In this document: positions 1,130-61,311 of the stretch, one piece after another
Numbering within the stretch: position 1 is the first letter of the stretch
Layout: each line of letters begins with the position of its first letter
Source: Kiritimatiellia bacterium
Lineage (GTDB): Bacteria > Verrucomicrobiota > Kiritimatiellia > CAIQIC01 > JAGNIJ01
Length of the DNA stretch: 64,000 nucleotides
Direction of reading: 5' to 3'
Assembly: GCA_018001225.1 (NCBI GenBank)
Contig: JAGNIJ010000006.1
Coordinates: forward strand, 29,188-93,187
The notes under the pieces: model-generated
Database searches by the model: none
What the model was told of the DNA's origin: nothing
What the model saw: the letters and a program-made list of their open reading frames with translations, nothing else
Program-made: the position numbers and the translations under genes

Positions 1130-1137
1130 CGGTCGCG

Positions 1138-1347
1138 CTACCCGTTCTTGGGGGCCGAGTCCGGTTTCTGGTCTTCTTCCGGCTTGGCCTCGGCGCCTTC
1201 CTTCTGGCCCTTCTTGAACTCCTGCATGCTGCGCCCCAGAGAGCGCGCCAGCTCGGGCAGTTTCTTCGCGCCGAAGAGCAGCAGGATCACCAGGAGAATC
1301 AGGATGATTTCCGGAACGCCCAGTCTGCTTAAAAACGCCAGGTTCAT
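1138..1347 (-). CDS. tatA: Twin-arginine translocase subunit TatA/E
   Basis: 69 aa. N-terminal TM helix then amphipathic helix and acidic tail (MNLAFLSRLGVPEIILILLVILLLFGAKKLPELARSLG...); classic TatA architecture and length. Confidence 0.8.
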   Translation of the reverse strand: MNLAFLSRLGVPEIILILLVILLLFGAKKLPELARSLGRSMQEFKKGQKEGAEAKPEEDQKPDSAPKNG

Positions 1348-1696
1348 AGGTTTTCCCCGTCCTTCCCCGGTGCCGCCGTGTCCCGGGCGTCTTTTCGGGC
1401 TGCGTCCCCGTTTTGCGGCCGGCCCGCGACCACGTCCGCCGTGACGAACGGGGGCCGGAACGGCCCGGTCACCCGGAGCGTGCCTGCCGGTTCATTTCCT
1501 CGATACAGTGTGAGTGTTTCACCCTCGGAAGGCAAGCGCTCACATTGCAGGACGACGAACCCGGCGGCCGAGTTGACCCGGATCACCCGCCCGACGAACG
1601 CCGGGGGCGGCACGGGGGCGGGGTTCGGCGGGACGGGCGCCCGGCACCCGGCCAGGGCCAGCACCGCCCCGGCGATCACGGCCGGCCATTTCACGG
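1344..1696 (-). CDS. small putative lipoprotein (GTG start), translationally coupled between glycosylase gene and tatA
   Basis: In-frame lipobox (VIAGAVLALAGC) after a GTG that overlaps the stop of the upstream gene as GTGA. Its own stop overlaps the tatA ATG as ATGA. No ATG start available. The rest of the 400-aa ORF in this frame is a GC artefact. Confidence 0.3.
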
Positions 1697-44224: not shown

Positions 44225-46669
44225 CTAGATGAAGAGGGTGGTTCCCGCCCGGTCCGCCTCGCCCAGGAAGGAGGCCACACCGCCCAGTTCGATGCCGTCG
44301 AGCAGCTCCTCGCGCTTCAGGCCCATGACGTCCATGGTCATTGTGCAGGCGATCATCCGCGCCCCGCCGCGCCGGGCCGATTCAATCAGGTCCGGCAGGG
44401 CGGTGACGTTCTTGTCCTTCATGACCTTCTTCATCATCGCCGTGCCCGCGCCCAGCATGTGGAGCTTGGAGAGTTTCAGCGCCCCGGCGCCCCGCGGCAT
44501 CATGGCTCCGAACATCTTCTCCAGGAACGGCTTCCGGATCGGCGCCGCATTCCGCCTGCGCAGGGCGTTCAGGCCCCAGAAGGTGAAGAACAGGCTGACC
44601 TCGTTGCCCATCGCCAGCGCGCCGTTGGCGATGATCAGGGCGGCCATGACCCTGTCCAGGTCGCCGGAAAAGACGACGAAGGTTTTGCGGCCGGACCGGC
44701 CCGCGGGCTCGGCCGACCGGGCCGGGGCGCCGCCCTTGCGGATGCGCGCCTCCAGCACGGCGCCCTTCCGGTCGAGCGACACCAGTTCATGGCCCTGGCC
44801 CCGGCACCAGGCCGGGGCGTCCGAGGCAAAGCCCGGGTCGGCCACGCGCACGAGGACTTCGTCCCCGGCGGCCAGTCCGTCCATTTTCTCCTTCAGGCGC
44901 AGGATCGGGCCCGGGCATTGCAGCGCCGTGCAATCCAGTTCCACGGTCTTTCCCGTTGGCGCGGACTGTTCCGCCATCTTTTCCTCGGCGTAGGCCAGGA
45001 ACGGCACCTCGGCCTCCTCCGCGCCGAGCGGTCCGTGCCACTGCCGGAAGGTCCGGCTCCCGCCCGCGAGCGTGGCGACATCGCGGAATCCCCGCTGTTT
45101 CAGCAGGCGATAGGCCAGGTAGCTGCGGAAGCCGACGGTGCAATACACGCGCGCCGGACGGTGCGAATCCAGTTCGCCGATGCGCGACCGGAGCTGGCCC
45201 AGCGGGATGTTCCGCGCGCCGGGGATGTGCCAGGTCTCGAATTCCGGGGCGCCGCGCACGTCCAGGATCAGCGCGCCCTCCGTGTTCGTCGGATAGTCCT
45301 CCGCGTACCAGAATTCCACGTCGCCCCGCAGCAGGTTGGCCCCGACGAAGCCCGCCATGTTCACCGGGTCCTTCGCCGATCCGAACGGCGGCGCATAGGA
45401 AAGTTCCAGGTTCTCCAGGTCATAGACCGTCAGCCCGGCGCGGACCGCCGTGGCGAAGACGTCCAGCCGCTTGTCCACGCCGTCAAACCCGACGACCTGC
45501 GCTCCGAGCAGCCGCCCCGTGTCCGGCGCGAAGAGGACCTTGATGTGCATCGGCGCCGTGCCGGGGTAGTAGCCGGCGTGGCCGGACGGGTGCAGGTAGA
45601 CCTTGCGGAAAGGCGTGCCGGCGCGGACCAGGCCCTTCTCGATGGCCCCCGTGCCGCCCGCGGTCATGTCGAAGATCTTCACGATCGCCGTGCCCTGCGA
45701 GCTGTCGTAGGTCGTGTCCCGCCCGCAAATGTTCTCCGCCGCGATCCGGCCCTGCCGGTTGGCGGGCCCGGCGAGGGGAATCAGCCACGCGTCGGGCAGC
45801 ACGACGTGCGCGACCTCGACGGCATCGCCGGCCGCGTAGATGTCCGGATCGGACGTGCGCATGTGGGCGTCCGCCTTGATGCCGCCGCGCGGCCCGAGTT
45901 CCAGCCCGGCGGCTTTCGCGAGGGCGGTATCCGGCCGCACGCCGGCGGAGAGGACGACGAAGTCCGCGGTCAGGACCGTGCCGTTCTTGAGTTCGACGGC
46001 GGCCCGGCCGCCGGCATCCCGGAACGCCGCGGCCGCGGTGCCCAGGTGGAGATTCACGCCGTGCTGCCGCAGGTGGTCCTCGAGCGGCGCGACCATTTCC
46101 TTGTCCAGCGGCGGCATGACCTGGTCGAGCATCTCGACCAGGTCGACCGCGAGGCCGCGGTGGCGCAGGTTCTCCGCCATCTCGACGCCGATGTACCCGC
46201 CGCCGATGACCACGGCGTTCTTCGCGCCGCGATCGACGGCCTCCTTGATCGCGTCCATGTCGTCCATGTTCCGCAGGACGTACACGCGGGGGTGGTCGAG
46301 GCCGGGCAGCGGGGGTTTGAGCGGCGTCGCGCCGGGGCAGAGCACCAGCTTGTCGTACGCCTCGTCGTATTCCCGGCCCGTGGCGAGCTCGCGCACGCGG
46401 ACTTTCCGGGTCGCCCGGTCGATGGCGAGCGCCTCGTGGCCGGTCCGCACGTCGAGGTCGAGCGAGGCCTTCAGGCTCTCGGGGGTCTGGAGGAGGAGTT
46501 GGGCGCGGTCGCGGATCACCCCGCCGATATGGTAGGGCAGGCCGCAGTTGGCGAAGGACACGTAGCGGCTGCGCTCCAGCACCACGATGTCCGCGCGCTC
46601 GTCCAGCCGCCGGGCCCGCGCCGCCGTGGACATGCCCGCCGCCACTCCGCCGATGACCACCAGTTTCAT
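44225..46669 (-). CDS. Multidomain CoA-disulfide/persulfide reductase-like flavoprotein: pyridine-nucleotide-disulfide oxidoreductase + rhodanese + TusA-like (CPGP) + DsrE/DsrF-like domain
   Basis: FAD-binding motif VVIGGVAAG and the redox Cys of the CoADR family (SFANCGLPY). Rhodanese segment with an active-site Cys (VYCTVGFRS). TusA motif LDCTALQCPGPILRLK. C-terminal DsrE-like Cys. Start at MKLVVIGG (in-frame ATG also at 46705). Confidence 0.7.
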   Translation of the reverse strand: MKLVVIGGVAAGMSTAARARRLDERADIVVLERSRYVSFANCGLPYHIGGVIRDRAQLLLQTPESLKASLDLDVRTGHEALAIDRATRKVRVRELATGREYDEAYDKLVLCPGATPLKPPLPGLDHPRVYVLRNMDDMDAIKEAVDRGAKNAVVIGGGYIGVEMAENLRHRGLAVDLVEMLDQVMPPLDKEMVAPLEDHLRQHGVNLHLGTAAAAFRDAGGRAAVELKNGTVLTADFVVLSAGVRPDTALAKAAGLELGPRGGIKADAHMRTSDPDIYAAGDAVEVAHVVLPDAWLIPLAGPANRQGRIAAENICGRDTTYDSSQGTAIVKIFDMTAGGTGAIEKGLVRAGTPFRKVYLHPSGHAGYYPGTAPMHIKVLFAPDTGRLLGAQVVGFDGVDKRLDVFATAVRAGLTVYDLENLELSYAPPFGSAKDPVNMAGFVGANLLRGDVEFWYAEDYPTNTEGALILDVRGAPEFETWHIPGARNIPLGQLRSRIGELDSHRPARVYCTVGFRSYLAYRLLKQRGFRDVATLAGGSRTFRQWHGPLGAEEAEVPFLAYAEEKMAEQSAPTGKTVELDCTALQCPGPILRLKEKMDGLAAGDEVLVRVADPGFASDAPAWCRGQGHELVSLDRKGAVLEARIRKGGAPARSAEPAGRSGRKTFVVFSGDLDRVMAALIIANGALAMGNEVSLFFTFWGLNALRRRNAAPIRKPFLEKMFGAMMPRGAGALKLSKLHMLGAGTAMMKKVMKDKNVTALPDLIESARRGGARMIACTMTMDVMGLKREELLDGIELGGVASFLGEADRAGTTLFI

Positions 46670-46724
46670 ATCCTGCTCCTTTCGGGTCGGGAGAAGATAA
46701 CGCAAAAGCGGGCGGGGTCCAGTC

Positions 46725-47346: not shown

Positions 47347-47421
<75 letters not shown>

Positions 47422-47630: not shown

Positions 47631-50600
47631 ATGAGGCGCACTTCATATAGCGTGGGGAGTGTGGTCTGCCGTGGCGGGCTGTTGCTGGGCCTGTGCGTGG
47701 CGCTGGCCGGGCCGGCGGCGGGCGAGGTGCTCTTCCAGGAGGACTTCGAGAGCGGTATCCTGGCGCCCTGCTGGGCGACAAACTCCACCGGCCAGGGACG
47801 CCTCCGCGTCACCGAGGACTGGACGCCCGCGGGCGGCGTCCGGCACGTGGTGATGGACGATTTTCAGAGCGACCTGGTCTCCTCCCGGAACGAACTGGTC
47901 CTGACCGTGGACCTCGGCGGGCAAAGCAATGTCGTTTTGAGTTTCCAGCACAAGTCGCTCAACGACGAGGATCACGAGATGCCCGACTCGTTCGGCGGCA
48001 GCCATGATTCGGACGGCGTGGCCGTCAGCGACGACGGCGGCACGACCTGGCACAAGATCCAGGGCCTGACCTCGTCCAATTTCACAGCCTCCGGCTACAA
48101 GTCGTTCGAGGTGCCGTTGACCCCGGGCGCGGCCTGGTCCCTGGTCGACGATTTCAAGATCAAGTTCCAGCAGTACGACGACTCGCCGGCAGAGGAGGAC
48201 GGGTTTGCGCTTGACGACATTCTCCTGGAGACGGTTTCCACGGCGCCCGGCGCGGACCTGACCTTGACCCTGGGGGCGCTGTTCTCCGGGCAGGGGCTCG
48301 CGGTTTCGAACGAGTACCCGCTGCTGTTGACGCTGGTGAACAAGGGGCCGCGGGAGGCCGTCGACGTCACGATCACCAACCGGCTGCCCGCGGGCGTCGA
48401 ACTCGTCACGGCCACGCTGGGCTACGAGGTCGATCCGGTCGGCCATGCCGTCCTATACCGCCTCGCGGAAATGGCCGCCGGCCAGACCTCCAGGTTCTGG
48501 ATGATCTGTTCGCCGGGGGTGACCGGCCTCTGCGTGTGGACGTCGGTCGTGACCTCCGCCGGCGCGGATACGAACGCCGCCGATAATACCGCGGCGTACC
48601 AAACCACGTTCGGGCCCCGGGGGGAACCCGCCGCGGATATCGGAGTTGAGGTCACGCTGTCCGATGCGGCCTGCCTTTCCCAGCCGTTCACCAACACGGT
48701 ACACTTGGAGAACTACACCGCCGAATACGTTTCCAACGTCCTGATCGTCAGCGAGTTCTCGGCGCCCGTGGAGATCCTGGACGGCTATTTCCGGGCCCAC
48801 AGCAACCAGCTGTGCAGTTCGCTCACCCTGACCCCTTCGTGGGGCGCCTTTTTCTCGTACCGGGTGCGGGCGACCCGGGAGGGCCTGCTGACGAACATCG
48901 TGCGGATCAGCGCGGCCCGCTCGCTGGCCTCCACGAACGGGCTGGTTTTCACCAATGTGATCCAGATCATCCCCGACTCGTCCTGGGAGCAGGTCCTGGA
49001 CGGCTACTGCGAGGGGCGCTACCTGGCCGGCGCCTATTCCGGCGGGGCGGACGACAGCCAGCCGGCGCTGGCGGACATGGACGCCGACGGCGACCCGGAC
49101 GCATTCATCGGCAGCGCGGACAAGCTGATGTATTACCGGAACATCGGCACCTCCAACGCGCCGGCGTGGGCGCCGCCCGTGCTGGTCCGACGGTTCTGGT
49201 CTAACGAGCGGCATGCCCCGGCCCCCGCGGACCTGGACGGGGACGGCGATCTCGATCTGCTGGTGGGCCGGCTCTGGGGAAACCTGATGCTGATCGAAAA
49301 CGAGGGCACCGCCACCAACGCCGCCTGGGGGGAACCCCAGTACAGCTACGGCGGCATCGACGTTGACTCCACCAGTGTCCCGGCCCTGGCCGACGTGGAC
49401 GGCGATGGCGACCCGGACCTTTTTGTCGGCAACGGCGACGGCGACATCCTCGTGTACACCAACACCGGGACCGCCGCCTCGGCCGCCTGGAGCGGGCCGT
49501 ACACCAACTTCCCGTGCCCGATTCCCAATTACGCGTACGCGGCGCCCCGGCTCGCGGACCTGGACGGCGACGGGGATTTCGATCTCGCGGCGGGCTACGA
49601 TCCGTATCCTTCACGGACCAACGCCTTCTGGCTCTACTGGGCCAACACCGGGACCGTCTTCCAGCCGCGGTGGGCGCCGTTCGCGACGCAGGAACTCGGG
49701 GTCGCCGCGGCGCACTACTTCGCCTCCTTCGCCCCGGCGTTTGCCGACCTGGACGGCGACGGTGACCTGGACGCCTGTATCGGCCAGTCGCAAGGCCGGC
49801 TGGATTTCGTGGCGAACCTGGGGCAGGCGACGCAGGCGGTGTGGCTGGGCCGGGGCGAACGGGTTTTCCTGCTGGACCTGCCCTCCCCGCAGATCGCCGG
49901 CGGCGACCTGGACGGCGACGGGGACGGCGACCTGCTGGTGAAGGGCCCGCACGACCCGCACCTGTGGCTGTACGAGAACGCGGGCACCCCCCTGCTGCCC
50001 ATCTGGCACCTGGCCACCACCAACTACCTGAACTGGACCGGCGGAGTCATTTACGGCATGACGTTCTGCGACATCGATGCCGACGACGATCCCGACCTGC
50101 TGGTCAACACGGCGGATCTCCTGGACGACACCCGCTGGATCATCATGTTTCTGGAAAACACCGGGACGGCGGCCCAGGCCTCCTGGGCCGCCCCGGTTCA
50201 TGACTACCTCGTCCTGAACGCCGCCACGGGCCATATGAACTACGGCGCGGTGGCGGCGGGCGACATGGATGACGACGGCGACTTCGACCTGTTCATCAAA
50301 GGATGGATCACCAACGGGCCCTTGCTCTACATCCAGAACACCGGGACGGCCGCCGCGGCCGCCTGGGCCCCTCCCGCGGATCCCGGAGTGGCCTGGTTCG
50401 GGGGGAATTACCATACGCCTCTGATCCTGGACATGGACGAGGACGGCGACCACGACCTGATCGGCATGACGGGCAGGGATTGGGTGTTCTACCCGAACAC
50501 CGGCGACGCGCAGCAGCCCCGGTGGTCGCTTCCGAGGCGTTTGTATGCCCCGGTGGACCCGTTCGGCCTCAACGATTTTGTGCAGTCCGGCGCCGCGATG

Positions 50601-53600
50601 GACCTGGATGCCGACGGCGATCTCGACCTGCTGTTCGCCACCGCGGAGGGCGGCTTGCTGTTCTACCGGAACCAGGCGGAGAAGCTGCAGGTGATCCCGG
50701 GGCAGCGGCCGCTGGAGCCGGGCGCGGGCTGCGATTTCAACCTCACGAACGGGTCGCCGGCCGCCTGGCAGTTCGTCGTGAACCGGAGCGGCGGAACGCT
50801 GGACCCGGCGACCGGCGCCTACCAGGCCGGCCCGACGCAGGCCCTCGACATCGTCGAGTCCCGCCTCGCGGACGGCCGCTACGGCCGGGCGTTCGTCCAG
50901 GTGATCAGCAACAGCCTGTCGGCCGGCCAGTCCCGGGCCATCGTGATGGCCGGCAGCAAGACCGCCGTGCTGACCGACGACCCGGCCTGGGAGGCGACCG
51001 ACTACCTGGCGGACCTGGCCTTCAACGCGCTGCGGGCCCGCGGCTACAGCAAGGGCAGCATGGCCTACTTGAGCCCCATGGTGGGACAGGACGTGGACGG
51101 CGACGGCTACCCCGACGTGACCCGGGCGACCACCCGGGCGAACGCCGAGTGGGCCTTCCAGACCTTCGCCCCGGGCGCGTCGAATCTCTTCGTCTACCTA
51201 GTCGACCACGGCGCCACGAACGAGGGCGGCGGATACTTCCGGCTGAACTCGACGGAGATTCTGGCGGCCACCAACCTGTCCGCCTGGCTCGACGGCCTGC
51301 AGGACGTTCACGGGATGGACGTGACCGTGGTGCTGGACTTCTGCCAGGCCGGCAGCTTCCTCGCACCCCTGGCGTATACCGGCGCCGCCGCGCGCATCGT
51401 CATCGCCGGCGCGGGCCCCGCCGAGGCCGCCTACTTCGTGGCGGGCGGGCTCGTGAGTTTTTCCGAGGCGTTCTTCCACGGCGTGCGGCTCGGGCTGGGG
51501 CTGGGCGAATCCTTCCGGGTGGCCCGCCGCGCGATGAGCGATTACCAGGACGCCTGGCTCGACGCGGACAAGGACGGCCGCTTCGACGAGGGCGTGGACG
51601 ACGCGGCCGGGGCGCTGGACCTGCCGGTGGGCGTGAGCATCGGCGGTGAACAGGGCGCCCCGCAGGTGGGGCTCATTGCGGACAACCAGTACCTGGACGG
51701 CGACAGCGCCGCGACCCTGTGGGCGGCGAACGTCTCCGCCGGGCAGCCGATCGACCGGGTCTGGTGCGTCGTGGTGCCGCCCGGGTATCAACCCGATCCC
51801 GACGTGCCCATCGCGTCCCTGCCCGAGATCGAACTGATCTATGCCGGCGGCCGGTACGAGGCGCAGTACACGGGTTTCGGCCAGGCGGGCACCTACAAGA
51901 TCATCTACTACGCCCACGCGCAGGGCGGAGGCGTGTCCCTGCCGAAGTACGGTTACGTCACGCAGGCCGGCGCGAACGAGCGCGCGATCCTTGTCGCCGG
52001 CGGGACGACCAACCTCGCCCTCTGGACCAACATCAACAGCGTGGCGAACGGCGCGTGGGAGACCCTGTTGGCCCGGCAGTTCACCACCGCCACGGTCTGC
52101 TACTTGAGCATGGACGCGGGGCAGCCGGGCGTGGACGGGGCGGTCTCCCTGGAGGCCGTCGGACAGGCCATCACGAACTGGGCCGGCGATTCGAAGAAGC
52201 TGACCCTGGTCCTCGTGGGCGAGGCGACGAACGATCTCCTGCGCCTCGCCGAGGGCGAGGACCTCGACGCACTCCAACTCGACGCCTGGCTGGACGCGTA
52301 CCAGGAGAGCAACCGGACGGTGATCGCCGCGATGGATTTCGCCGGCGCTGGAAGTTTCATCACCAACATGACCACGCCGCCCGGGCGCGAGCGAATCCTG
52401 ATCGCCGGTGCGGGGCCGGGCGAGCCCGCGGTCTGCGAGCAGTCCGGCTGGATCAGCTTCACCCGTGTATTTTTCAGCCACGTGTTCGACGGGCGCGACG
52501 TGCTCGAGTCCTTCCGGGCCGCGCGGGACATCGTCTTCAACCTCACCCGCGGCGCCCAGGACCCGCAGCTCGACGACAACGGCAACGGCGTGCCGAACGA
52601 GAAGGACGTCGAGGGCGCCGCGGCGCAAGGCGAGTACCTCGGGTCGGCCTTCGTGACCGGCGCCGAGGCGCCGGTGATCGGGGCCGTGACGCTGGACACC
52701 GTGCTGGCGGGCACGAACGCCCTCGTGCTCTGGGCCTCCGAGATCGTTGCGGCCGCCGGCGTGGACCGGGCCTGGTGCGTTGTTGCGCCGCCGTCCGACG
52801 CGGAGGATTCCGCCCTCGTGACCGTGGACCTGGCCTGGTCGGCCGGCGAAAGCCGCTACGAGGCGGCCTGCACGAACTTCACCGAGCCCGGCGTTTATAT
52901 CTGTACGTTTTTCGCCATGGATTACGACGGCGTGATCGGCGCGCCGCGCCAAGCCCAGGTCTTCAGCGCGGACCGGTACGAGCCGGACAACAGCGCGGAC
53001 GACGCCCGGCCCTTCGAGATCGCCGGCGTGCAGGTCCGCAATTTCCACGTCGCCGGCGACGAGGACTGGGTCGGGTTCTTTCTCGTCACCAACTACGTCT
53101 ACGAGCTGCGCACGCGGCAGCTCGGCACCAACGTGGACAGCGTCGTGGACCTGTACCGCGTGCTCGGCGACGGGAGCCTCTCCAACGTCGTGCACCAGGA
53201 CTTGCAGGGCGCGGGGGCCGGCCAGGGCGAGTACCTCCTGCTCGAGCACAGACCCGCGGGCCTGTACCTCGCGCGCGTGACCGCCTACCGGCCGTGGCAG
53301 GCGGGCCTGGGCACGGAATACGAGGTGCGCATCCACGTGCCGGCCGCGCCCTCGACGACCTTCCTCTGCATCCTCGGGGCGGACCTGCACGACTCGGATC
53401 GCTCCCCGCCGGGCGCGGTGGCCTGGGTGGACGGCGCGCCCCACGCTTTCTCCGGCGGCCGCAACTTGATCGAGCTGACGGGGATCGCGGCGAAGACGTA
53501 CACGATTACCGTGACGGCGCCCGGCTGCCTGCCCGCGCAGCACGCCAGCCGGGCCGGGCAGGTGGAGGACCAGAACAACCAGGCCTACGGCAATCCGCGG

Positions 53601-54350
53601 CGGGTGCGGGTCCGCAGCGGGGCGTTCGTCGCCGCGCCCTTCCTCCTGGAGCCCTGCGTGCGGGTCAAGGGTGTAGCGCGCGATGCCGCGACGGGCAAGC
53701 GCCTGAAGAACGCCAGCCTGGCCTTTGCGCCGAATTCCTCGTCCGGCCTGCCGTGCAGCCGGTACGACGGTTACCCGGGCTACGCCAGCTACCGCCGGCG
53801 CTGGCTCACCGCGCCGGACGGCCAGTTCCCGACCAACGTCTACCTGCCGCCGCGCGCGGGATGGCTGACGGTCACGGCCGACGGCTATTCGAACGCCGCG
53901 TTCTATCTGAACCTCGCCTTGCCGAACGGCAGCACGAACGAGGCCGGGGAACTGCCCTGCGGGCCGGTCGTCACCAACGCGGGCGGCTTGCCCAACCGGT
54001 GGATCAACCTGCACTTCGGTGGCCCGACCAATATCCTGGCGATGCAGGACACGGACGAGGACGGGCAGAGCAACTGGAACGAATTGTTGACCGACACCGA
54101 TCCCAACGACCCGGACAGCGTGTTCGCCCTCTTCGGGGCCGGCGTCGGCTTCATGCCGGCCGGGCTGCGGTTGCAATGGAGCGGCGTCGAGGGGCACGCC
54201 TACCAGGTGGCCGGGTGCAGCAACCTGTGGCCCGAGGCCTGGTCCGTCGTCGGCGGGCCGTGGACCAACTGGGACAATTCAGCCATGGAATGGACCAGCC
54301 CCGAACCGGCCGGCCGCGGCCTCTACCGCCTCGAGGAATTCCGGCCGTAG
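47631..54350 (+). CDS. 2239-aa secreted FG-GAP/VCBS-repeat protein with two tandem legumain-like (peptidase C13 / CD-clan) caspase-fold domains and C-terminal beta domains
   Basis: Signal peptide. Many FG-GAP-type repeats (ADLDGDGDLDL...). First domain has the legumain-like His and Cys dyad (FVYLVDHGATNEGGGYF; VVLDFCQAGSF). A duplicated second domain has both replaced (LVLVGEATNDL; AAMDFAGAGSF). Confidence 0.7.
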   Translation: MRRTSYSVGSVVCRGGLLLGLCVALAGPAAGEVLFQEDFESGILAPCWATNSTGQGRLRVTEDWTPAGGVRHVVMDDFQSDLVSSRNELVLTVDLGGQSNVVLSFQHKSLNDEDHEMPDSFGGSHDSDGVAVSDDGGTTWHKIQGLTSSNFTASGYKSFEVPLTPGAAWSLVDDFKIKFQQYDDSPAEEDGFALDDILLETVSTAPGADLTLTLGALFSGQGLAVSNEYPLLLTLVNKGPREAVDVTITNRLPAGVELVTATLGYEVDPVGHAVLYRLAEMAAGQTSRFWMICSPGVTGLCVWTSVVTSAGADTNAADNTAAYQTTFGPRGEPAADIGVEVTLSDAACLSQPFTNTVHLENYTAEYVSNVLIVSEFSAPVEILDGYFRAHSNQLCSSLTLTPSWGAFFSYRVRATREGLLTNIVRISAARSLASTNGLVFTNVIQIIPDSSWEQVLDGYCEGRYLAGAYSGGADDSQPALADMDADGDPDAFIGSADKLMYYRNIGTSNAPAWAPPVLVRRFWSNERHAPAPADLDGDGDLDLLVGRLWGNLMLIENEGTATNAAWGEPQYSYGGIDVDSTSVPALADVDGDGDPDLFVGNGDGDILVYTNTGTAASAAWSGPYTNFPCPIPNYAYAAPRLADLDGDGDFDLAAGYDPYPSRTNAFWLYWANTGTVFQPRWAPFATQELGVAAAHYFASFAPAFADLDGDGDLDACIGQSQGRLDFVANLGQATQAVWLGRGERVFLLDLPSPQIAGGDLDGDGDGDLLVKGPHDPHLWLYENAGTPLLPIWHLATTNYLNWTGGVIYGMTFCDIDADDDPDLLVNTADLLDDTRWIIMFLENTGTAAQASWAAPVHDYLVLNAATGHMNYGAVAAGDMDDDGDFDLFIKGWITNGPLLYIQNTGTAAAAAWAPPADPGVAWFGGNYHTPLILDMDEDGDHDLIGMTGRDWVFYPNTGDAQQPRWSLPRRLYAPVDPFGLNDFVQSGAAMDLDADGDLDLLFATAEGGLLFYRNQAEKLQVIPGQRPLEPGAGCDFNLTNGSPAAWQFVVNRSGGTLDPATGAYQAGPTQALDIVESRLADGRYGRAFVQVISNSLSAGQSRAIVMAGSKTAVLTDDPAWEATDYLADLAFNALRARGYSKGSMAYLSPMVGQDVDGDGYPDVTRATTRANAEWAFQTFAPGASNLFVYLVDHGATNEGGGYFRLNSTEILAATNLSAWLDGLQDVHGMDVTVVLDFCQAGSFLAPLAYTGAAARIVIAGAGPAEAAYFVAGGLVSFSEAFFHGVRLGLGLGESFRVARRAMSDYQDAWLDADKDGRFDEGVDDAAGALDLPVGVSIGGEQGAPQVGLIADNQYLDGDSAATLWAANVSAGQPIDRVWCVVVPPGYQPDPDVPIASLPEIELIYAGGRYEAQYTGFGQAGTYKIIYYAHAQGGGVSLPKYGYVTQAGANERAILVAGGTTNLALWTNINSVANGAWETLLARQFTTATVCYLSMDAGQPGVDGAVSLEAVGQAITNWAGDSKKLTLVLVGEATNDLLRLAEGEDLDALQLDAWLDAYQESNRTVIAAMDFAGAGSFITNMTTPPGRERILIAGAGPGEPAVCEQSGWISFTRVFFSHVFDGRDVLESFRAARDIVFNLTRGAQDPQLDDNGNGVPNEKDVEGAAAQGEYLGSAFVTGAEAPVIGAVTLDTVLAGTNALVLWASEIVAAAGVDRAWCVVAPPSDAEDSALVTVDLAWSAGESRYEAACTNFTEPGVYICTFFAMDYDGVIGAPRQAQVFSADRYEPDNSADDARPFEIAGVQVRNFHVAGDEDWVGFFLVTNYVYELRTRQLGTNVDSVVDLYRVLGDGSLSNVVHQDLQGAGAGQGEYLLLEHRPAGLYLARVTAYRPWQAGLGTEYEVRIHVPAAPSTTFLCILGADLHDSDRSPPGAVAWVDGAPHAFSGGRNLIELTGIAAKTYTITVTAPGCLPAQHASRAGQVEDQNNQAYGNPRRVRVRSGAFVAAPFLLEPCVRVKGVARDAATGKRLKNASLAFAPNSSSGLPCSRYDGYPGYASYRRRWLTAPDGQFPTNVYLPPRAGWLTVTADGYSNAAFYLNLALPNGSTNEAGELPCGPVVTNAGGLPNRWINLHFGGPTNILAMQDTDEDGQSNWNELLTDTDPNDPDSVFALFGAGVGFMPAGLRLQWSGVEGHAYQVAGCSNLWPEAWSVVGGPWTNWDNSAMEWTSPEPAGRGLYRLEEFRP

Positions 54351-54384: not shown

Positions 54385-56142
54385 TCAGAAGTGCTTGATG
54401 CAGGAGACGAAGACCTGGTGCTCGGTGACGTCGGTGCGGAGGTTCTCCGCCGGGACCAGGCTGCCGAGCACGTCGTCGCCCCGCGTGTAGACGTAGGCCA
54501 CGTCGAGGATCCAGCGCGCGGGCTTCTTCCCGAGGGCCACGCCCGTGCCCACGCTGCCGCTCCAGTACTGGTCGGGCTCGCCGATCGCCGGCCGCTCCTC
54601 CCACGCCACGCCCGCCCGCAGCGGGATCTCCACCCGCGGGAACACGAGCAGGTATTCGATCCCGCTCCGCACCGCCCACGTGTCGTCGAGCGGGTGCTCG
54701 CCGTGCGGGCTGCCGTCGAGCGGATTGATCTTTTCCTCGCCCTCGGCCTGGAAGGCGAAGTCCGACCAGCGCGTGTGGTTGACGTCCAGCGACGTGTACA
54801 GGCGGTCCGTCCAGCGCCACACCGCGCCCAGCGCGAAGGCCGCCGGGAAGGTGAACTCCACGTCCTTGGAAACGAGGCTCTCGGTGGACGTCACGTCCAG
54901 GACGCGCGTCCGGGCGGCGTTGTAGGTCGTCGCGGTGTCCCGGATGGTCTTGGTCTGTTCCGCGTCGGCGGTCCAAGGCAGATCCGCCGCGCCGCCGAGG
55001 CTCAAGTGCCGCGACACGGTCCACAGGAAGCCCAGCGTCGCGTTGAACCCGCACAGGTCGTCGATCCGGTTCTCCTCCTCGTACACGCCGTCCACCACGA
55101 TCCCGGACGAGTCCTCCGAGAAGGACCGCTCGGAGAAGTCGGGGAACGCGCCCGAACTGGAGAAGGGGATCTCGGGGAAGGGCGGGGGATATCGGATCAC
55201 GCCCTCGTACTCGTACGTCGAACTCGTCACGCGCGTGTCGCGCCGGGCGCTGTCCAGCGTGGACGAGCCCGTGTAGCGGGCCGTGGTCTTCGAGCGGATG
55301 TCCCGGTTCGGCATCGGGCTGTCCTGGTACAGGTTCAGCGAAAGCCCCGCGGCCAGGTTCGGCAGGATCTCCACCGCCATCGCGGGCGTGACGGCGTCGA
55401 TGATGCCCTGCTGTTCGAAGTCCAGCCCGGTCAGCAGGTCCGACCGCAGGATCTCCTGCAGCGCGCTGGTGTGGCGCGTGGTCAGGCGAGTGGTGAAGGT
55501 GACGGAGGCGGTGACGCCCTCCTCGAGCACGCTGTCGAAGCGGTCCACCTGCGTGGCGGTGTCCACGCGGGTCTCGGTCTTTCCGCCGGCCGCCGGCCGC
55601 GCGCCTTCTTTCGCCGTGGCGGTGAACTCCTGGGTGAAGTCGTAGGCCTCCTGGTAGTTCAGGGCGAAGACCACGTTGCGGTTGAAGAGCGTGACGGGAT
55701 AGGCGCAGCTGAAGTAGTTCAGGTTCTCGTTGCCGTACTCGTTGACCCCGACGATGAAGGCGTCGGAATCGGAGTTGTTTTCGTTCCGCTCGCGCGACGA
55801 GCGGACCATGATGGAGGCCTCGGGGCGCTCGAGCTGGATCAACCCGGCGGGATTCCACGAGGCCGCCGTCGCGTCGTCGGCGACCGCCGTGAACGCACCG
55901 GCCAGGCCGAGCGCCCGCGCGCCGGACCCACTGGGCAGCGGCGCGGAGAAGATGCTCGGCGGGCGAAAGGCCGGCGACGACGGCGCGCCGCCCTGGACCA
56001 GGGTGCCGCCCGGCCCGGCGTGATCCAGCGAGATGGTCACCGGCCCCGCCGGCGTCTCCACCGTGAAGTCCTCCGCGCGGACGGATCCGCCCAGGAGCAG
56101 CCCTGGCACAAGCAGGAAAACGGCTTTCTTTATCCAGTGCAT
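54385..56142 (-). CDS. FadL/TodX/OMPP1-family outer-membrane beta-barrel transporter
   Basis: Signal peptide, N-terminal hatch motif GLAGAFTAVADDATAASWNPAGL (the NPAG of the FadL family), and a C-terminal aromatic residue (…CIKHF). Confidence 0.65.
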   Translation of the reverse strand: MHWIKKAVFLLVPGLLLGGSVRAEDFTVETPAGPVTISLDHAGPGGTLVQGGAPSSPAFRPPSIFSAPLPSGSGARALGLAGAFTAVADDATAASWNPAGLIQLERPEASIMVRSSRERNENNSDSDAFIVGVNEYGNENLNYFSCAYPVTLFNRNVVFALNYQEAYDFTQEFTATAKEGARPAAGGKTETRVDTATQVDRFDSVLEEGVTASVTFTTRLTTRHTSALQEILRSDLLTGLDFEQQGIIDAVTPAMAVEILPNLAAGLSLNLYQDSPMPNRDIRSKTTARYTGSSTLDSARRDTRVTSSTYEYEGVIRYPPPFPEIPFSSSGAFPDFSERSFSEDSSGIVVDGVYEEENRIDDLCGFNATLGFLWTVSRHLSLGGAADLPWTADAEQTKTIRDTATTYNAARTRVLDVTSTESLVSKDVEFTFPAAFALGAVWRWTDRLYTSLDVNHTRWSDFAFQAEGEEKINPLDGSPHGEHPLDDTWAVRSGIEYLLVFPRVEIPLRAGVAWEERPAIGEPDQYWSGSVGTGVALGKKPARWILDVAYVYTRGDDVLGSLVPAENLRTDVTEHQVFVSCIKHF

Positions 56143-56196: not shown

Positions 56197-57843
56197 CTAC
56201 GGGCCTTTTTCGCCGGCAGGCCGCGGGGCATCGTCGGGGCGCAGGGCTACAAGGGCAGCCGCCACCTGCTGCGCCAGGTCTGTGCAGGCGGCGGGAAGGG
56301 CGGCCTCGTCGAGGGCCACGCTCCACGACTCGAGGATGCGGCTGGTCTCCGTGTCCACGAGGCGCAGCAGGGCGGTCCATCCGTCCCCCTGCCGGGCCAC
56401 GTGGCCCAGCAGCAGCGTGCTGGCCGGGAGGAAGCGGCCGACCTGGAGCCGGGCCTGGGGATCGGCGAGGCTGGAGAATCCGAGGTTCAGTTCCTGTAGG
56501 GCCGCCTCCAGGTTCTCGCGCTCGACCGTGATGATCCGGTCCTGGCGCTGCAGCGCCGCCGTCAGGCCGATCCGGACGAGCGCGGCCATGTTCGCGCCGG
56601 CGGCATCCTCGCCCAGCGGCTCCGGACCGAGACAGGCAATCACGCGCGGCAGGACCCGGTCCGCCGGCGCCGCGGCGGGCGGCGCGGCGCGGACCTGTTC
56701 GATCAGTTGCCGGAGCGCCGCCTGTCGTTCCTGCCGCTTGCCACGGTGAAGGTGGTCCGACACGGCGGCGGTCAGCGAGCCTGGCTCCGGCGCGGCCTCC
56801 GCCAGGAGCCGCGCGGCCGAGTTGGTCGCGCCCTCGCGGTCCAGCCAGAGCGCGTCGCGGGCGGCCTGCACATCAGAGTCCGGCTCCGCGCCGCGCGCCG
56901 CGGCGGGCGCCTCGCCGAAGGCCAGGAGGGCGGGATCGGTGGAGAAGACGAATTCCCCGCCGCCGTGCGACGAAACCGCCAGCGGCCCTATCCGGACCCG
57001 CTGGCCGGTCAGGGCGCCGACTTTCTCGCGCACCGCCAGGGCCATGTCCGACGCCGAGAACACGGGGCTGTTGGGATTGCGGAGAAACTGGAGCAGCGCC
57101 TCGGCGAAGACGCTGTGCTCGAACCCGCTGTCCAGCACCGGCTCCAGGTCGCCGCTGGCGACGAGGTAGCGCGACGGCTGGTCGAGGGCCCGGGCGTACC
57201 AGGCCGCCGCCCGTTCCGCCGCCGGCTCGCCGCCCCGGAAGAGGGACCCGGCGTAGCAGGAATCCGCGATGACGAGGACGTGCCGCGCGCGCGAGGCGTT
57301 GATCATCTTCGTGATCATGCTGTTCCAGATCCAGTCCTCGCGGGCGTCGCGTCCTTCGGCTGTCTTCCGGGCGTCGCACGGGATCCAGAATCCCTCGTCC
57401 AGGGCCTCGTCGTAGGAGCCATGCCCCGCGTAGTAGATCAGCACGGCGTCGCGGTCGTCCAGGGTGGCCAGCTTGTCGAGGGCGGTGAGGATGCCGCTCT
57501 TCGAAGCCCGCGGGCCCGTCAGGAGATCGACGGAAAAACCGTATTGCAGCCGGAGCACCTCCGCCATGGCCTCGGCGTCCGCGCGGGCGGTCTTGAGATT
57601 CTCCCAGCCCCCGCCGGCCCGGGCGGCATAGTCGCCGATGCCGATGACCACGGCGTGGTAGTTCGGCGCGCCGGCGGCGTGTGCCCCGTCCGGCGCGACG
57701 CGGCCCGCGCCGCCCGCCGGGCCCCGGTACGTGGACGCGGAGCGCCCGAGGTAGATCACCAGACCCAGGCAGAGGCCGATCGCCAGCAGGAACGCCGCCG
57801 ACCGGGCCGCCGGTCCCGCCTCCTTTCTGGACTCATCGGGCAT
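56197..57843 (-). CDS. Membrane-anchored caspase (peptidase C14) domain protein with C-terminal LpoB/CsgG-like module
   Basis: N-terminal TM (AAFLLAIGLCLGLVIYLG). C14 domain with the His and Cys dyad (AVVIGIGDY...VLIYYAGHG...FWIPCD...VLVIADSCYAGS). C-terminal region contains a LLRLVDTETSRILESW motif shared with the LpoB-like lipoprotein at 39929. Confidence 0.75.
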   Translation of the reverse strand: MPDESRKEAGPAARSAAFLLAIGLCLGLVIYLGRSASTYRGPAGGAGRVAPDGAHAAGAPNYHAVVIGIGDYAARAGGGWENLKTARADAEAMAEVLRLQYGFSVDLLTGPRASKSGILTALDKLATLDDRDAVLIYYAGHGSYDEALDEGFWIPCDARKTAEGRDAREDWIWNSMITKMINASRARHVLVIADSCYAGSLFRGGEPAAERAAAWYARALDQPSRYLVASGDLEPVLDSGFEHSVFAEALLQFLRNPNSPVFSASDMALAVREKVGALTGQRVRIGPLAVSSHGGGEFVFSTDPALLAFGEAPAAARGAEPDSDVQAARDALWLDREGATNSAARLLAEAAPEPGSLTAAVSDHLHRGKRQERQAALRQLIEQVRAAPPAAAPADRVLPRVIACLGPEPLGEDAAGANMAALVRIGLTAALQRQDRIITVERENLEAALQELNLGFSSLADPQARLQVGRFLPASTLLLGHVARQGDGWTALLRLVDTETSRILESWSVALDEAALPAACTDLAQQVAAALVALRPDDAPRPAGEKGP

Positions 57844-59872
57844 AGATCACGTCTCCTTCAGCCAGGCCGGCCGCCGCGGCCGGGGGGCTCACTTTCGCCT
57901 GGGCCCGCTGGGCATAAACCCTTGATATGCATAGCTCAACCGCCTTCTCCGCGTGGAGCCGCACCGTGCATTCGGCCAGGCCCCCGCGTCCTTCGCCCGG
58001 CCCGTCCAGTACCAGGAACCGCATGCCGGGTTTCAGGCCCTGCGCGGCGCCGATCCCCACGGTGGCTATGTCGCTGGAGGCCGAGAGAATCTTCCCGTCC
58101 ATCAGGGGAAACTGCTGCTCGATCTTCATCGCCAGGCCCTCGACGCGGTCGCGCAGGTCCTTCTCGGGCGCCGGCACGTAGACATCTTCGGCGCACAGGA
58201 TCTCGCCGCTGGCGGAGTCCACGACGCGGCTGAAGATCGTCAGGCTTTCGCCCTGCGGGATCAGCAGCGTCAGGGCGAGCAACTCGGCGGGGACCAGCTT
58301 GCCGATGCGCAGCGCGGCCCGCGGGTCGGCCAGGTCCGACGCGCTCAACCGCTGTTCCTCGATCAGCGCGCCCCAGCCGTCCGCCCGCTCGAGCACCCGG
58401 AAGCGCGGCGGGTGCAGCAGCAGCTCGTGCTCCATCAGCCGGCCGACCTGTTCGGCCCGCGCGTCCACGACCGGCTCCGCCGCCGCCGCGGTGCTGACGG
58501 GCGATACGCCCAGGCTCAAGCGGTAGGCCTCGTCCAGGTACTCGGGGTCCTGGCCGATCACGACGCACTGTTCGCGGTTCCGGTGTCCGGCCCGGTCCAC
58601 GGCGACCACCTCGAACACGTTTGTGCCCGGGTCCAGCGCCAGCCGCCGGGCGAAGTGAAACTGCACGCAGCCCCGCGAGGCCTCGGGCAGCAGTTCCTCG
58701 CCGTTGATGGAAAGGGAAGTCAACCCTCCGCCGTCGGAGGTCGTGCCCTCGAGGTGAAACTCGCGGTTGAACACGCGGGTGCGGAGCGGCGTGTGCAGCC
58801 GCAGGCTGGGCCGGAGCCGATCGCCGCTCTCCGGGGCCGCGCGTTCCGGGACGTCCGCGCGCCCCTCCGCCGCCCGCGCGGCGTACCTCGGCGCGCGGTC
58901 CCGGGCGACCTCCGCGAAACGGTCCGCCTCCAACAGCCGGTCCAGCGTATTGCCCGCGAAGTCCGCGAGGTGTACCGCCCGCGTCCCGCCGAAAGGCACC
59001 AGGATCTTGAAGTCCGCCGCCTTCCCGTGGCCGGGCTCGAGCGGCCGGCCGTCCACCGACACCTGCGCCAGGCCGAACCGGTCCACGGCCCGGGCCTCGA
59101 CGGCCCACCCGTCCGCCTGCCGGTCCGCCTTGAGAATGGCCAGGCCCGGCGGTTGCCAGTCCGCGGTGACGCTCCAGCGCGCGCTCGTTTCGCGATCGGC
59201 CAGGTCGCGCGCGGCCACGAGGACGATGTTTTCGCCCTCCGCCAGTTCCACGGCCCGCGAGATCGGGACGACCGGCGCCGCCAGTTCGAGGAACAGGGGC
59301 CGGCCGTTGACGGTCACGGCCTGCACGTAGCCTTCCGCGGAGACCCGTCCGGCCACCGTCAGCGTTCGTTCCCGGCTCCAGGCGGGCGGGGGCGGGGCGA
59401 GGTCGATCCGCGGCGGGGGCTGCGCCCGGCCGCGCACGAGCTCAGCGCGCGCGAGGTTCAGGAAGTGCCGGGCGCGGCCGGAAGGCTGCTGCTCCAGCGA
59501 GTGCTCGAGGAAGCGCACGGCGTTGCTCGCCTCGCCGAGCCGAAAGAAACAGATGCCCAACTCGCGGTGGGGAAAGTAGTCGTCGATGAAATGAAACCCG
59601 TACGTTCGCGCGCGCCAGGTGTCGCGCGGGTAACCGTACACGGCGCCGCGCTCCAGGCCCAGGCAGATGCGGAACTGTTGCGCGGCGGCCGCGTCATCGC
59701 CGGCGTAGGACAGCGCCGTGCCGCGCTGGTAGAAGTTCCACCAGGTCTTGTGCCGAGGCGGGGGGGCGGCGTGGCCGGCGCGGGGCGAGGGCGCGCAGGC
59801 CGGGAGCAGCAGGCCGATCGCCGCGGCGGCGCCCGCCGCCGCGATCGACCGGAAAAGGCGCCGGGCATCCAT
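57833..59872 (-). CDS. Large lipoprotein (lipobox LLLPAC) with N-terminal TPR-like region, Ig-like middle and C-terminal LpoB/CsgG-like motif; unknown function
   Basis: Lipobox at residues 22-27. The TIFSRVVDSASGEILCAEDVYV motif resembles the motif in the caspase C-terminus and the LpoB-like protein. 11-nt overlap with the downstream caspase gene. Confidence 0.5.
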   Translation of the reverse strand: MDARRLFRSIAAAGAAAAIGLLLPACAPSPRAGHAAPPPRHKTWWNFYQRGTALSYAGDDAAAAQQFRICLGLERGAVYGYPRDTWRARTYGFHFIDDYFPHRELGICFFRLGEASNAVRFLEHSLEQQPSGRARHFLNLARAELVRGRAQPPPRIDLAPPPPAWSRERTLTVAGRVSAEGYVQAVTVNGRPLFLELAAPVVPISRAVELAEGENIVLVAARDLADRETSARWSVTADWQPPGLAILKADRQADGWAVEARAVDRFGLAQVSVDGRPLEPGHGKAADFKILVPFGGTRAVHLADFAGNTLDRLLEADRFAEVARDRAPRYAARAAEGRADVPERAAPESGDRLRPSLRLHTPLRTRVFNREFHLEGTTSDGGGLTSLSINGEELLPEASRGCVQFHFARRLALDPGTNVFEVVAVDRAGHRNREQCVVIGQDPEYLDEAYRLSLGVSPVSTAAAAEPVVDARAEQVGRLMEHELLLHPPRFRVLERADGWGALIEEQRLSASDLADPRAALRIGKLVPAELLALTLLIPQGESLTIFSRVVDSASGEILCAEDVYVPAPEKDLRDRVEGLAMKIEQQFPLMDGKILSASSDIATVGIGAAQGLKPGMRFLVLDGPGEGRGGLAECTVRLHAEKAVELCISRVYAQRAQAKVSPPAAAAGLAEGDVIYAR

Positions 59873-59887: not shown

Positions 59888-60691
59888 CTAGAGGGCCGCC
59901 TCGGGGCGGCGCGCGCGGACGAGGTCCTCCGCGACCCGCTGCCCGAACTCCGGCAAGGCCCGCGAAAACGCCTCGGCGTTCTCGAAGCTGTGCGACCAGC
60001 GGAACACCAGGGTGTCCTCCCCGGGCCGGAAGGCGTCCACCTCGATGGACAGCATGTTCTCCGGCAATTCCTGGAGGCGGGTGGCGAGGCGCCACTCGGT
60101 GCGTTTTTTCAGCAGCGAGCGTGGCGCCGTCTTCCCCAGCGCCTGTTCGTACTGCGCGCCGATCTCGGCCTTCAGGGCGCCGGCGAGCGCCTCCATGGCG
60201 GCCCGGCGCGCGGCGTCGTCGCCGGCCGGGGCCCCCCGGTACTGGGCGGCCTCGATCCGGTCCGTCTGCCAGGCGAGGGTGGGGGAGAAGTAGTTGCGCG
60301 CGCCGAGGAGGACCAGCGCGCAGGCCGCCAGGGCGGCGACGGTCTGCAGCGCGCGCCAGGGCTGCAGGAGCCAGAGCCGCGCCTCGCCCGGAAAGGGCAG
60401 CACCTGGGGCGGCGCGGACTCTTCAGGCGCGGCAGCGCCCCAGCGTCCCGCCTCGGGCGAAGCCTCCCAGGCGCGCAGCACTTTTTTTGCCAGGTCGTCC
60501 TCCGTCACGGCGGCCTGCGTCCCGGCCTCGCGCAGCAGGCGGTCCATGTCCTCGATCTGGCGGTACTGCCGCTGCAGGTCCGGGTTCGTCTTCAGCGCTT
60601 CCCGCAGGCCGGCGGCTTCCGGTTCGTTCAGCTGGCCATGCACCAGAGCCCATAATTTGTCCGATTCGCTCATGTCATGGAGCTCCTTCAC
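59888..60691 (-). CDS. Putative anti-sigma factor (single-pass membrane protein) cognate to the upstream ECF sigma
   Basis: 4-nt overlap (ATGA) with the sigma gene. Cytoplasmic N-domain, one central TM (LQTVAALAACALVLLGARNY), and a periplasmic C-domain. No specific family motif recognised. Confidence 0.45.
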   Translation of the reverse strand: MKELHDMSESDKLWALVHGQLNEPEAAGLREALKTNPDLQRQYRQIEDMDRLLREAGTQAAVTEDDLAKKVLRAWEASPEAGRWGAAAPEESAPPQVLPFPGEARLWLLQPWRALQTVAALAACALVLLGARNYFSPTLAWQTDRIEAAQYRGAPAGDDAARRAAMEALAGALKAEIGAQYEQALGKTAPRSLLKKRTEWRLATRLQELPENMLSIEVDAFRPGEDTLVFRWSHSFENAEAFSRALPEFGQRVAEDLVRARRPEAAL

Positions 60692-61311
60692 AGGCCACTG
60701 TCGCCCGACAGGCGAAAATCTTCCCCGAAAAAGGAATCCAGGCTCAACATTTTCCGCATCTTTTCAAGGCACTTGGCCAGCCTGGAGCCGACCGTGTTGA
60801 TCGAGATGCCCAGTTCGTCCGCCATCTGCTTGTAGGATTGCTGGGCGAAGTAGAAGCGCTGGATGGCGACGCGGCAGAGCTCGTCCACCTGGTCCAGGAC
60901 GCGCTTCACCTGGCCGGCGACCTCGGCGTTGATCACGTCGCGGAGCGGATCCTGCGACCGGTCCGCCATGCGCGCCGTCTCCTCCTCCGGCCGCTGCCCG
61001 TCCCCGGTGGCCAGCGGCACCAGGATCTGCCGCGCGCGGATCTGGCGGCGCACCTCGTCGATGCAGCGGTTGATGCAGATGCGCTTGACGTAGTACTCGA
61101 CGGAGGATTCCTCGTTGAACGACTCGATCGCCTTGAAGAGGGCCAGGCGGATGCCCTGGGCCATGTCCTCCCGCGTCGGGGGCGAAAACCGCCACTTCGA
61201 CCAGGAGACCACCGAGCGGATCAGTTCGTCGTGCTGCGCAAAAAAATCGTCCCACGCCCGGCGGTCCCCGGATTGAAGCCGGCCAAGCTCTTCTGGGCTG
61301 ATGTCGCTCAT
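60688..61311 (-). CDS. ECF-type RNA polymerase sigma-70 family factor
   Basis: Region 2 (…ELIRSVVSWSKWRF…AQGIRLALFKAIESF) and the region 4 HTH (SYKQMADELGISINTVGSRLAKCLEKMRKML). Confidence 0.8.
   Translation of the reverse strand: MSDISPEELGRLQSGDRRAWDDFFAQHDELIRSVVSWSKWRFSPPTREDMAQGIRLALFKAIESFNEESSVEYYVKRICINRCIDEVRRQIRARQILVPLATGDGQRPEEETARMADRSQDPLRDVINAEVAGQVKRVLDQVDELCRVAIQRFYFAQQSYKQMADELGISINTVGSRLAKCLEKMRKMLSLDSFFGEDFRLSGDSGL

Follow-up and report, generated by a model that had tools for sequence, protein, structure and literature searches.

An intact legumain-like domain and a degenerate copy form a conserved tandem in giant bacterial proteins

Why should a giant bacterial protein carry, next to a protease domain that looks intact, a second copy of that domain from which the catalytic residues have gone? 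The question is raised by a locus of a Kiritimatiellia bacterium (GenBank assembly GCA_018001225.1, contig JAGNIJ010000006.1, positions 29,188 to 93,187 of the forward strand), a stretch of 64,000 nucleotides (nt) that is here called the window. On its plus strand, an open reading frame (ORF) at 47631..54350 encodes 2239 amino acids (aa) and a stop codon. The product is identical to NCBI MBP7828974.1, recorded as 'VCBS repeat-containing protein [Kiritimatiellae bacterium]' and thus named only for its repeats. A preliminary description of the window had seen in this protein an intact and a degenerate legumain-like (C13) domain side by side. The current work shows that this live/dead C13 pair is a real, widespread and unannotated module. 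Judged from the sequences compared, the pairing is an ancient, family-wide architecture and not a peculiarity of the window gene.

The duplication is clear at the protein level. In a BLASTP comparison of aa 1051-1430 with aa 1431-1800, the two segments align in a single alignment of 335 columns with 33% identity (E 1e-39), and in hhalign a profile of 18 first units matches a profile of 18 second units over 226 columns (probability 100%, E 5.9e-72). Two adjacent segments that align with each other had been proposed within 50930-52450. The duplication itself was upheld, but its extent was not: the repeat comprises aa 1100-1428 and aa 1449-1762 (nt 50928-52916) and is longer because each copy also holds a beta-sandwich domain of about 90 aa. 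Unit 1 consists of an intact C13-like caspase-fold domain (aa 1100-1335, 50928..51635, on the plus strand like every part of this gene), delimited by BLASTP, profiles, AlphaFold2 (AF2) and Foldseek, and a PKD/Ig/Fn3-like beta-sandwich (aa 1336-1428, 51636..51914). After a linker of about 20 aa, unit 2 repeats this order with a degenerate, pseudo-protease C13-like domain (aa 1449-1672, 51975..52646; BLASTP, family alignment and hhalign) and its own beta-sandwich (aa 1673-1762, 52647..52916; BLASTP and the AF2 model). No similarity between the copies was found at the nucleotide level, and the duplication is therefore old. A recent duplication or an assembly artefact is ruled out by this absence and by the separate orthologous groups that first and second units form.

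The difference between the copies lies in their active-site blocks. All four motif segments quoted in the preliminary description were located exactly in the reading frame: LFVYLVDHGATNEGGGYF (aa 1186-1203, nt 51186-51239) and AWLDGLQDVHGMDVTVVLDFCQAGSF (aa 1218-1243, nt 51282-51359) in unit 1, and LTLVLVGEATNDLLRL (aa 1524-1539, nt 52200-52247) and AWLDAYQESNRTVIAAMDFAGAGSF (aa 1552-1576, nt 52284-52358) in unit 2. Its numbering of His1193 and Cys1238 is also right. His1193 (nt 51207-51209) stands within DHG in the context FVYLVDHG, and Cys1238 (nt 51342-51344) within DFCQAGSF in the context VTVVLDFCQAGS. The order of the clan CD dyad, a His-Gly after a hydrophobic strand and then a Cys after a second hydrophobic strand, is thus present in unit 1, and in alignments of the pair and unit-1 family profiles to PDB sequences the DHG and CxSGS blocks fall on the catalytic His-Gly and Cys of legumain. 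The dyad is lost from unit 2 of the window protein. There, hhalign pairs D1192/H1193/G1194 with G1530/E1531/A1532, and the family alignment pairs C1238 with A1571, which bears out the earlier observation that the first copy keeps His and Cys and the second has Glu and Ala.

A further feature of the units is a set of DxDxDG-type loops, which we take to be Ca2+-binding motifs. Unit 1 has two of them, DVDGDG (aa 1154-1159, 51090-51107) and DADKDG (aa 1311-1316, 51561-51578). In unit 2 the first is deleted and the second is kept as DDNGNG (aa 1648-1653, 52572-52589). The loops are conserved across the family, the second one more strongly in the dead unit. Their sequences indicate that they probably bind calcium, and suggest Ca2+ stabilisation of unit 1.

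The architecture can be followed far beyond the window. Word-indexed searches had found 3 and then 17 relatives. When 1.84 billion cluster representatives were searched exhaustively with a HMMER profile, 4066 of them matched with E values of at most 1e-3 and 1554 with E values of at most 1e-30. The sample analysed here contains 153 proteins, namely the 150 listed representatives of the 4066 and three fragments that the first search had supplied. In 141 of the 153 there are exactly two units, with about 20 aa between them; a few proteins contained 3-4 units with other live/dead combinations. Both His and Cys were kept in 137 of the 141 first units, and in only 1 of the 141 second units. In second units, Asp-His-Gly is deleted in 82% and the Cys survives in about 13 of 141, with Asp as the commonest residue (21%) in its column. 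Conservation in unit 1 and not in unit 2 extends to Thr1123, Gly1138 and Phe1269 as well as Asp-His-Gly and Cys1238, and the core common to both units comprises a GxxSF motif, Arg1255, Gln1306, a DDNGDG loop and residues of the beta-sandwich. Strict retention of His and Cys in unit 1, with free loss in unit 2, is the pattern expected under selection on catalysis.

The two kinds of unit also form distinct lineages. The best non-self match of a first unit was another first unit in 140 of the 141 proteins, and that of a second unit was another second unit in 139; the two units of one protein share a median identity of 33%. One duplication before the diversification of the family therefore accounts for the pairs. 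A distant relative was observed in a Pseudomonadales metagenome-assembled genome (MAG; CALSMJ010000003.1, locus L008, 4011-8990, plus strand). It has two C13-like units about 650 aa apart, both with His-Gly and Cys (YLTDHGG...YDACQSGTF and YMVGHGG...YDACRSGSF), and its reading frame is apparently interrupted between ORFs. Two intact, non-adjacent units in such a sequence suggest that the live/dead tandem is derived.

What kind of domain was duplicated was examined through structure and profiles. An AF2 model of aa 1100-1762 built from an 18-row alignment reached a mean predicted local distance difference test score (pLDDT) of 86.0 and a predicted template modelling score (pTM) of 0.67; a first model, from a 5-row alignment (pLDDT 53.8), was discarded for it. 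In each modelled unit, about 210-235 residues form an alpha/beta domain, and the next 90 or so an all-beta one. In a Foldseek search with this two-unit model, whose matches are not attributed to one unit or the other, the top 41 PDB matches were all C13 (plant asparaginyl endopeptidases and ligases, human legumain and PIGK), and MALT1 and caspase-7 ranked after them. The predicted fold is a caspase fold with C13 as the nearest family, in agreement with the preliminary description. A structure search of viral models in BFVD returned only generic caspase-fold and Ig-like matches.

Profile comparisons lead to the same family. With the pair profile, 22 PDB sequences had E values of 10 or less, all of them C13 and the best a legumain (E 2e-4). 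The unit-1 profile found C13 at best with E 7.7e-5, its other matches at E <0.1 being designed 'Pizza' proteins without a scoring stretch. C13 is the only family among the meaningful PDB profile matches, and no unrelated family took its place. The family profile is needed for this result: a PDB search with the single sequence of unit 1 gave nothing relevant. Against the gathering score of 22.8 bits of Pfam Peptidase_C13 (PF01650), the whole protein scores 19.1, unit 1 20.2 and the pair segment aa 1100-1762 23.0 bits. Among 18 relatives, 17 match this model at E <0.01, the PF01650 assignment is precomputed for several relatives, and across the family first units most often carry the legumain-like DHG...DACESGS. 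Neither the pair nor the tail was matched by any NCBIfam model above cut-off, tail matches being sub-threshold.

That the domain stands for a clan CD family of its own, a sister of C13 and the metacaspases that is similar to legumain only in the His-Gly/Cys core, is a rather unlikely alternative to this assignment. Such a family would fit a Pfam C13 match that covers only profile positions 110-170 of 258 below threshold, PDB profile matches of about 80 residues at E values of the order of 1e-4 or weaker, a legumain sequence alignment that spans the His-Cys core only, and weak matches to an NCBIfam caspase model in 13 of the 18 relatives. The LSAM prodomain, a C-terminal helical segment that covers the active site in the legumain zymogen, is also absent, and an all-beta PKD/Ig-like domain follows the catalytic domain instead. 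When the alignment is extended by eye, Ala1122/Thr1123 come to stand opposite Arg44/His45 at the S1 positions of legumain, whose zwitterionic S1 pocket sets its strict Asn/Asp preference at P1; in this by-eye alignment the S1 Arg-His is not conserved. The acidic Asp1236 two positions before Cys1238 is retained and is 95% conserved, and nothing tested supports in unit 1 the Asn/Asp specificity that is the hallmark of legumain. However, all significant Pfam and PDB sequence matches are to C13 and none to C14, C11 or C25. Peptidase_C14 (PF00656) has no match in the protein, its units or the 18 relatives, relatives reach E 1.9e-15 on PF01650, and many carry the exact legumain motif. The predicted fold, the dyad and the affinities of the profiles make a divergent C13 member the most probable identity of the catalytic domain, with a Pfam membership that is marginal for this sequence.

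The degenerate copy is harder to place. Unit 2 of the window protein alone has no Pfam match, 5 of 18 second units match Pfam C13 at E 1 or better, and the unit-2 profile finds in PDB only weak PIGK matches (E 0.17-1.1). The earlier statement that both segments are legumain-like therefore holds for unit 1, while unit 2 alone is not recognisable as C13 (E 0.17 against PIGK). It is regarded as a caspase-fold domain because it is homologous to unit 1 and because of its modelled fold.

The pair is embedded in a larger constant region. Before it lies a pre-domain of about 75 aa (aa ~1018-1092, 50682..50906), probably Ig-like, which is conserved in 131 relatives with the consensus L..P...T...G...W....N.SGG...Y.AG...GVD...GR..NVI and over which coverage climbs to 42-44 matches. 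Behind it lies a tail conserved among relatives (aa 1763-2239, 52917..54347), with a PPC-like (pre-peptidase C-terminal) domain (~aa 1777-1902, 52959-53336), a CarboxypepD_reg-like beta-sandwich region (within 52917..54347), a TSP3-like Ca-binding motif (aa 2136-2164, 54036-54122) and a terminal beta domain of about 73 aa (54129-54347). In Pfam, the window tail has only a sub-threshold CarboxypepD_reg match and no PF04151 PPC match; PPC is found in 4 of 11 related tails (best E 1.8e-4), TSP3_bac in 3 and CarboxypepD_reg in 2. The tail is 450-500 aa long in 53 of the 141 two-unit proteins and homologous to the window tail in 86 of 152 relatives. A weak tblastn match to the TSP3-like part of the tail was observed elsewhere in the window (21663-21890, minus strand; E 3.6e-4, 30% over 76 aa), and this suggests that another window protein carries a similar C-terminal motif.

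The region before the pair, by contrast with this constant part, is variable and ranges from 0 to 5062 aa among relatives. In the window protein it starts with a probable Sec signal peptide (aa 1-31, 47631..47723; MRRTSYSVGSVVCRGGLLLGLCVALAGPAAG, followed by EV), judged by eye, and continues with a DUF11 repeat domain (aa 233-322, 48327..48596; Pfam PF01345, E 3.6e-08) and an FG-GAP/VCBS repeat region (~aa 470-1010, 49038..50660; Pfam FG-GAP_3 E 6e-36 in 7 stretches, FG-GAP E 2e-19). Both the signal peptide and the repeats had been noted before. The repeat region is common to only about 30-38 of the 152 relatives; others have beta-helix/NosD, PKD, Kelch/LamG or chitobiase-C domains instead, and their NCBI names follow those domains. 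From this pattern of length and homology, the constant part is a C-terminal cassette of about 1,200 aa made up of pre-domain, live unit, dead unit and tail.

Named relatives come from MAGs of Kiritimatiellae, Verrucomicrobiae and Hydrogenedentes. The nearest genome match, in a single-protein scan that gave 3 genome loci, is a Verrucomicrobia MAG at 78% identity, and on one Kiritimatiellae MAG contig two paralogues lie side by side. A 1017-aa member (P0159, ENA ERZ1426827, locus L005) ends a same-strand gene run that starts with a Phage_Mu_Gp36 homologue, a neighbourhood that may place the C13 pair in a prophage or tail-like setting.

How such a cassette works can be considered from these features. 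The reading favoured here, which we hold to be probable though well short of certain, is site-specific limited extracellular proteolysis by unit 1, with the dead unit 2 as scaffold or exosite. After Sec export, unit 1 would be a working cysteine endopeptidase, probably stabilised by Ca2+, that cuts at specific sites and does not digest in bulk. It would act on the giant protein that carries it or on sibling surface proteins, and the variable N-terminal part would thereby be matured or shed. The dead unit 2 would be kept as a non-catalytic partner, either as a scaffold or as an exosite for substrate, and the P1 preference of unit 1 need not be Asn. This reading is favoured because clan CD enzymes are P1-driven, site-specific endopeptidases (PMC12445089), because caspase-like domains inside large surface proteins and toxins of bacteria have been proposed to serve autoprocessing, with suggested structural or peptide-binding roles for inactive repeats (PMC3482391), and because in some relatives the pair is followed by a PPC-type domain. 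The context resembles that of a secreted protease, given the by-eye signal peptide and the PPC domains of the 4 related tails.

Several points weigh against limited proteolysis. A search of the 130 aa that precede unit 1 for a conserved cleavage motif yielded only the Ig-like pre-domain, and we know of no activity, substrate or cleavage site for any family member. The Pfam C13 scores of the window protein lie at or below threshold (19.1 to 23.0 against 22.8 bits). Export beyond the periplasm is an assumption, limited or cis processing is preferred over digestion in trans by analogy, and the contact between unit 1 and unit 2 is putative, in a pair model whose pTM is 0.67.

Trans-acting digestion is the main rival to limited proteolysis. 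The N-terminal domains would bind extracellular polymers or glycoproteins, and the C13 unit would digest attached or nearby proteins for nutrition, in a combination of catalytic and adhesin domains like that of gingipains. The succession of catalytic domain, Ig/PKD and PPC is like that of secreted bacterial proteases, the N-terminal domains of the relatives are typical binding or carbohydrate modules, there are several paralogues per genome, and cultured Kiritimatiellales are known to degrade polymers (PMC6388578). Nevertheless, clan CD proteases are usually narrow processing enzymes that are strict in their P1 preference (PMC12445089), no evidence here has the N-terminal domains binding a substrate, and simple digestion would need neither an internal position of the protease nor its constant pairing with a dead copy. 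A degradative role is thus possible, and we would give it a clear minority of our confidence.

Other readings depart further from proteolysis as such. Unit 1 might act as a transpeptidase like GPI8/PIGK or the plant asparaginyl ligases, cutting a segment from the C-terminus of the giant protein or a partner protein and moving the new C-terminus to an envelope acceptor in a sortase-like anchoring. C13 does hold transamidases and ligases, which are among the best structural matches; the motif DFCQAGS is closer to IDTCQ(G/A) of PIGK than to EACESGS of legumain; and the cassette invariably occupies the C-terminus and ends in a conserved domain. However, neither an acceptor nor a sorting signal or membrane anchor could be identified, the NCBIfam sorting-domain models give no match, the likeness to PIGK is confined to a short motif, and the idea is entirely speculative and quite improbable. 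A self-contained surface-display device, in which unit 2 would hold a segment of the protein's own conserved tail or be an obligatory activator of unit 1 like c-FLIP, and unit 1 would cut that segment and, as GPI8 and the plant peptide ligases do, transfer the giant protein to an envelope acceptor, has a similarly slight chance. If true, it would amount to a sortase-like anchoring of PVC (Planctomycetes-Verrucomicrobia-Chlamydiae) bacteria built into each cargo, and would explain one cassette under many N-termini. Least probable by far is that both units are non-enzymatic structural or adhesive spacers whose kept His and Cys are functionless. The annotation of the protein names nothing but its repeats, which would suit spacers; but unit 1 keeps its His in 98% and its Cys in 99% of 141 divergent proteins, while unit 2 has lost both freely. 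Limited proteolysis by unit 1 remains the preferred reading.

The genes around the giant ORF were also examined. Upstream of it is a tRNA-Gly(CCC) gene (47347..47421, plus strand, ARAGORN), as described before. Downstream, a convergent gene for an outer-membrane protein of the FadL/TodX family (54385..56142, minus strand; Pfam Toluene_X, E 4.6e-12) ends 35 nt away, stop codon to stop codon. Further along the minus strand follow genes for a fusion of Peptidase_C14 with a CsgG-like domain (56197-57843), which is an unusual combination, a TPR/Glucodextran_B-like protein (57833-59872), an unknown 267-aa protein (59888-60691) and a sigma factor of the extracytoplasmic function (ECF) type (60688-61311) at the apparent head of the operon. 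The giant gene was correctly described as converging on a caspase operon. The whole operon is syntenic in two loci (L003 and L006) whose relatives have 77-78% identity, and the C14-CsgG gene is absent from the other, more distant loci that were fetched. A functional tie between the giant protein and this operon was rejected as unsupported, with synteny only in those close relatives. A FadL-like homologue, however, lies near the homologue of the giant gene in four of the eight fetched loci (L001, L002, L003 and L006). In L002 it is directly downstream on the same strand (14161-15930, plus strand) and in L001 it is 8 kb upstream (47-1673, plus strand), both with relatives at about 50% identity and in an orientation that differs from the one in the window. 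The FadL-like gene may be functionally associated with the giant protein, a weak lead from few loci.

Two other products of the window were recorded. An 826-aa fusion (44225-46705, minus strand) combines Pyr_redox_2 with its dimerisation domain, rhodanese, TusA and DsrE_2, and from these domains looks like a multi-domain sulfur-transfer protein or persulfide reductase. A 544-aa ORF (61478-63112, minus strand) gives FG-GAP_2 repeat matches (E 4e-31) together with signals of Kelch-like beta-propellers, and may be another repeat-rich secreted protein near the giant gene.

The family has some wider meaning. C13 has been studied almost entirely in eukaryotes, through legumain, GPI8 and the plant peptide ligases, and the present family exposes a blind spot of annotation. 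It also offers a natural experiment on pseudoenzymes, in which one copy from a single ancient duplication has its catalytic residues strictly conserved and the other lost them yet was kept; having been kept through the whole history of the family, the dead copy must do something. C13 is a source of peptide ligases for protein engineering, and a large bacterial, extracellular and probably Ca-dependent clade is a new pool of candidates. A cassette of about 1,200 aa behind swappable N-termini points to a shared mechanism for maturation or display of giant surface proteins, in hosts (Kiritimatiellia and Verrucomicrobia) that are little-studied polymer degraders.

In the literature searched, no description was found of a fixed C13/pseudo-C13 tandem or of bacterial legumains generally. 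The closest enzymes are the legumains and asparaginyl endopeptidases and ligases (C13, PF01650), which share the catalytic order of hydrophobic strand and DHG, then hydrophobic strand and (D/E)xCxSGS. Unlike them, the window protein is bacterial, has its protease embedded in 2239 aa, has a PKD/Ig-like beta-sandwich in place of LSAM, contains DxDxDG-type loops, always has its dead paralogue beside it and scores at the border of the Pfam model. PIGK/GPI8 shares the D-x-C-Q Cys motif with unit 1 and is the only PDB family that the unit-2 profile touches, weakly. PIGK works only with non-catalytic partner subunits; it is, however, a subunit of a eukaryotic membrane complex of the endoplasmic reticulum whose partners are separate polypeptides of other folds, and no evidence of transamidation was found for the window protein.

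Pairs of active and inactive caspase-like domains are known from other families. In separase a dead protease domain precedes the active one. An intact and a dead domain of the same fold, adjacent in one chain and conserved as a pair, are likewise found in the present family (141 of 153 proteins with exactly two units), but separase (C50) belongs to a different family and is cytoplasmic and eukaryotic. In the window protein the order is reversed, with the dead domain second, and the copies are clear sequence paralogues with 33% identity, each with its own Ig-like domain. Caspase-8 and c-FLIP(L) are separate polypeptides whose dimerisation activates the enzyme, and the monomer is normally the active form of C13 enzymes and of metacaspases. 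The gingipains (C25) and polymorphic toxins are of different families, and the window protein has no C25 or C80 sequence match. Polymorphic toxins also have the reverse layout, since the window protein has its constant part at the C-terminus, its variable part at the N-terminus and no toxin domain. The internal autoprocessing caspase-like domains of large bacterial proteins, some with repeats that lack catalytic residues, do resemble the window pair (PMC3482391). The pairing of live and dead caspase-fold domains is itself known from separase and from caspase-8/c-FLIP, repeats that include inactive copies are noted in polymorphic toxins (PMC3482391), and the C13 tandem of this family is a matter of moderate rather than high surprise.

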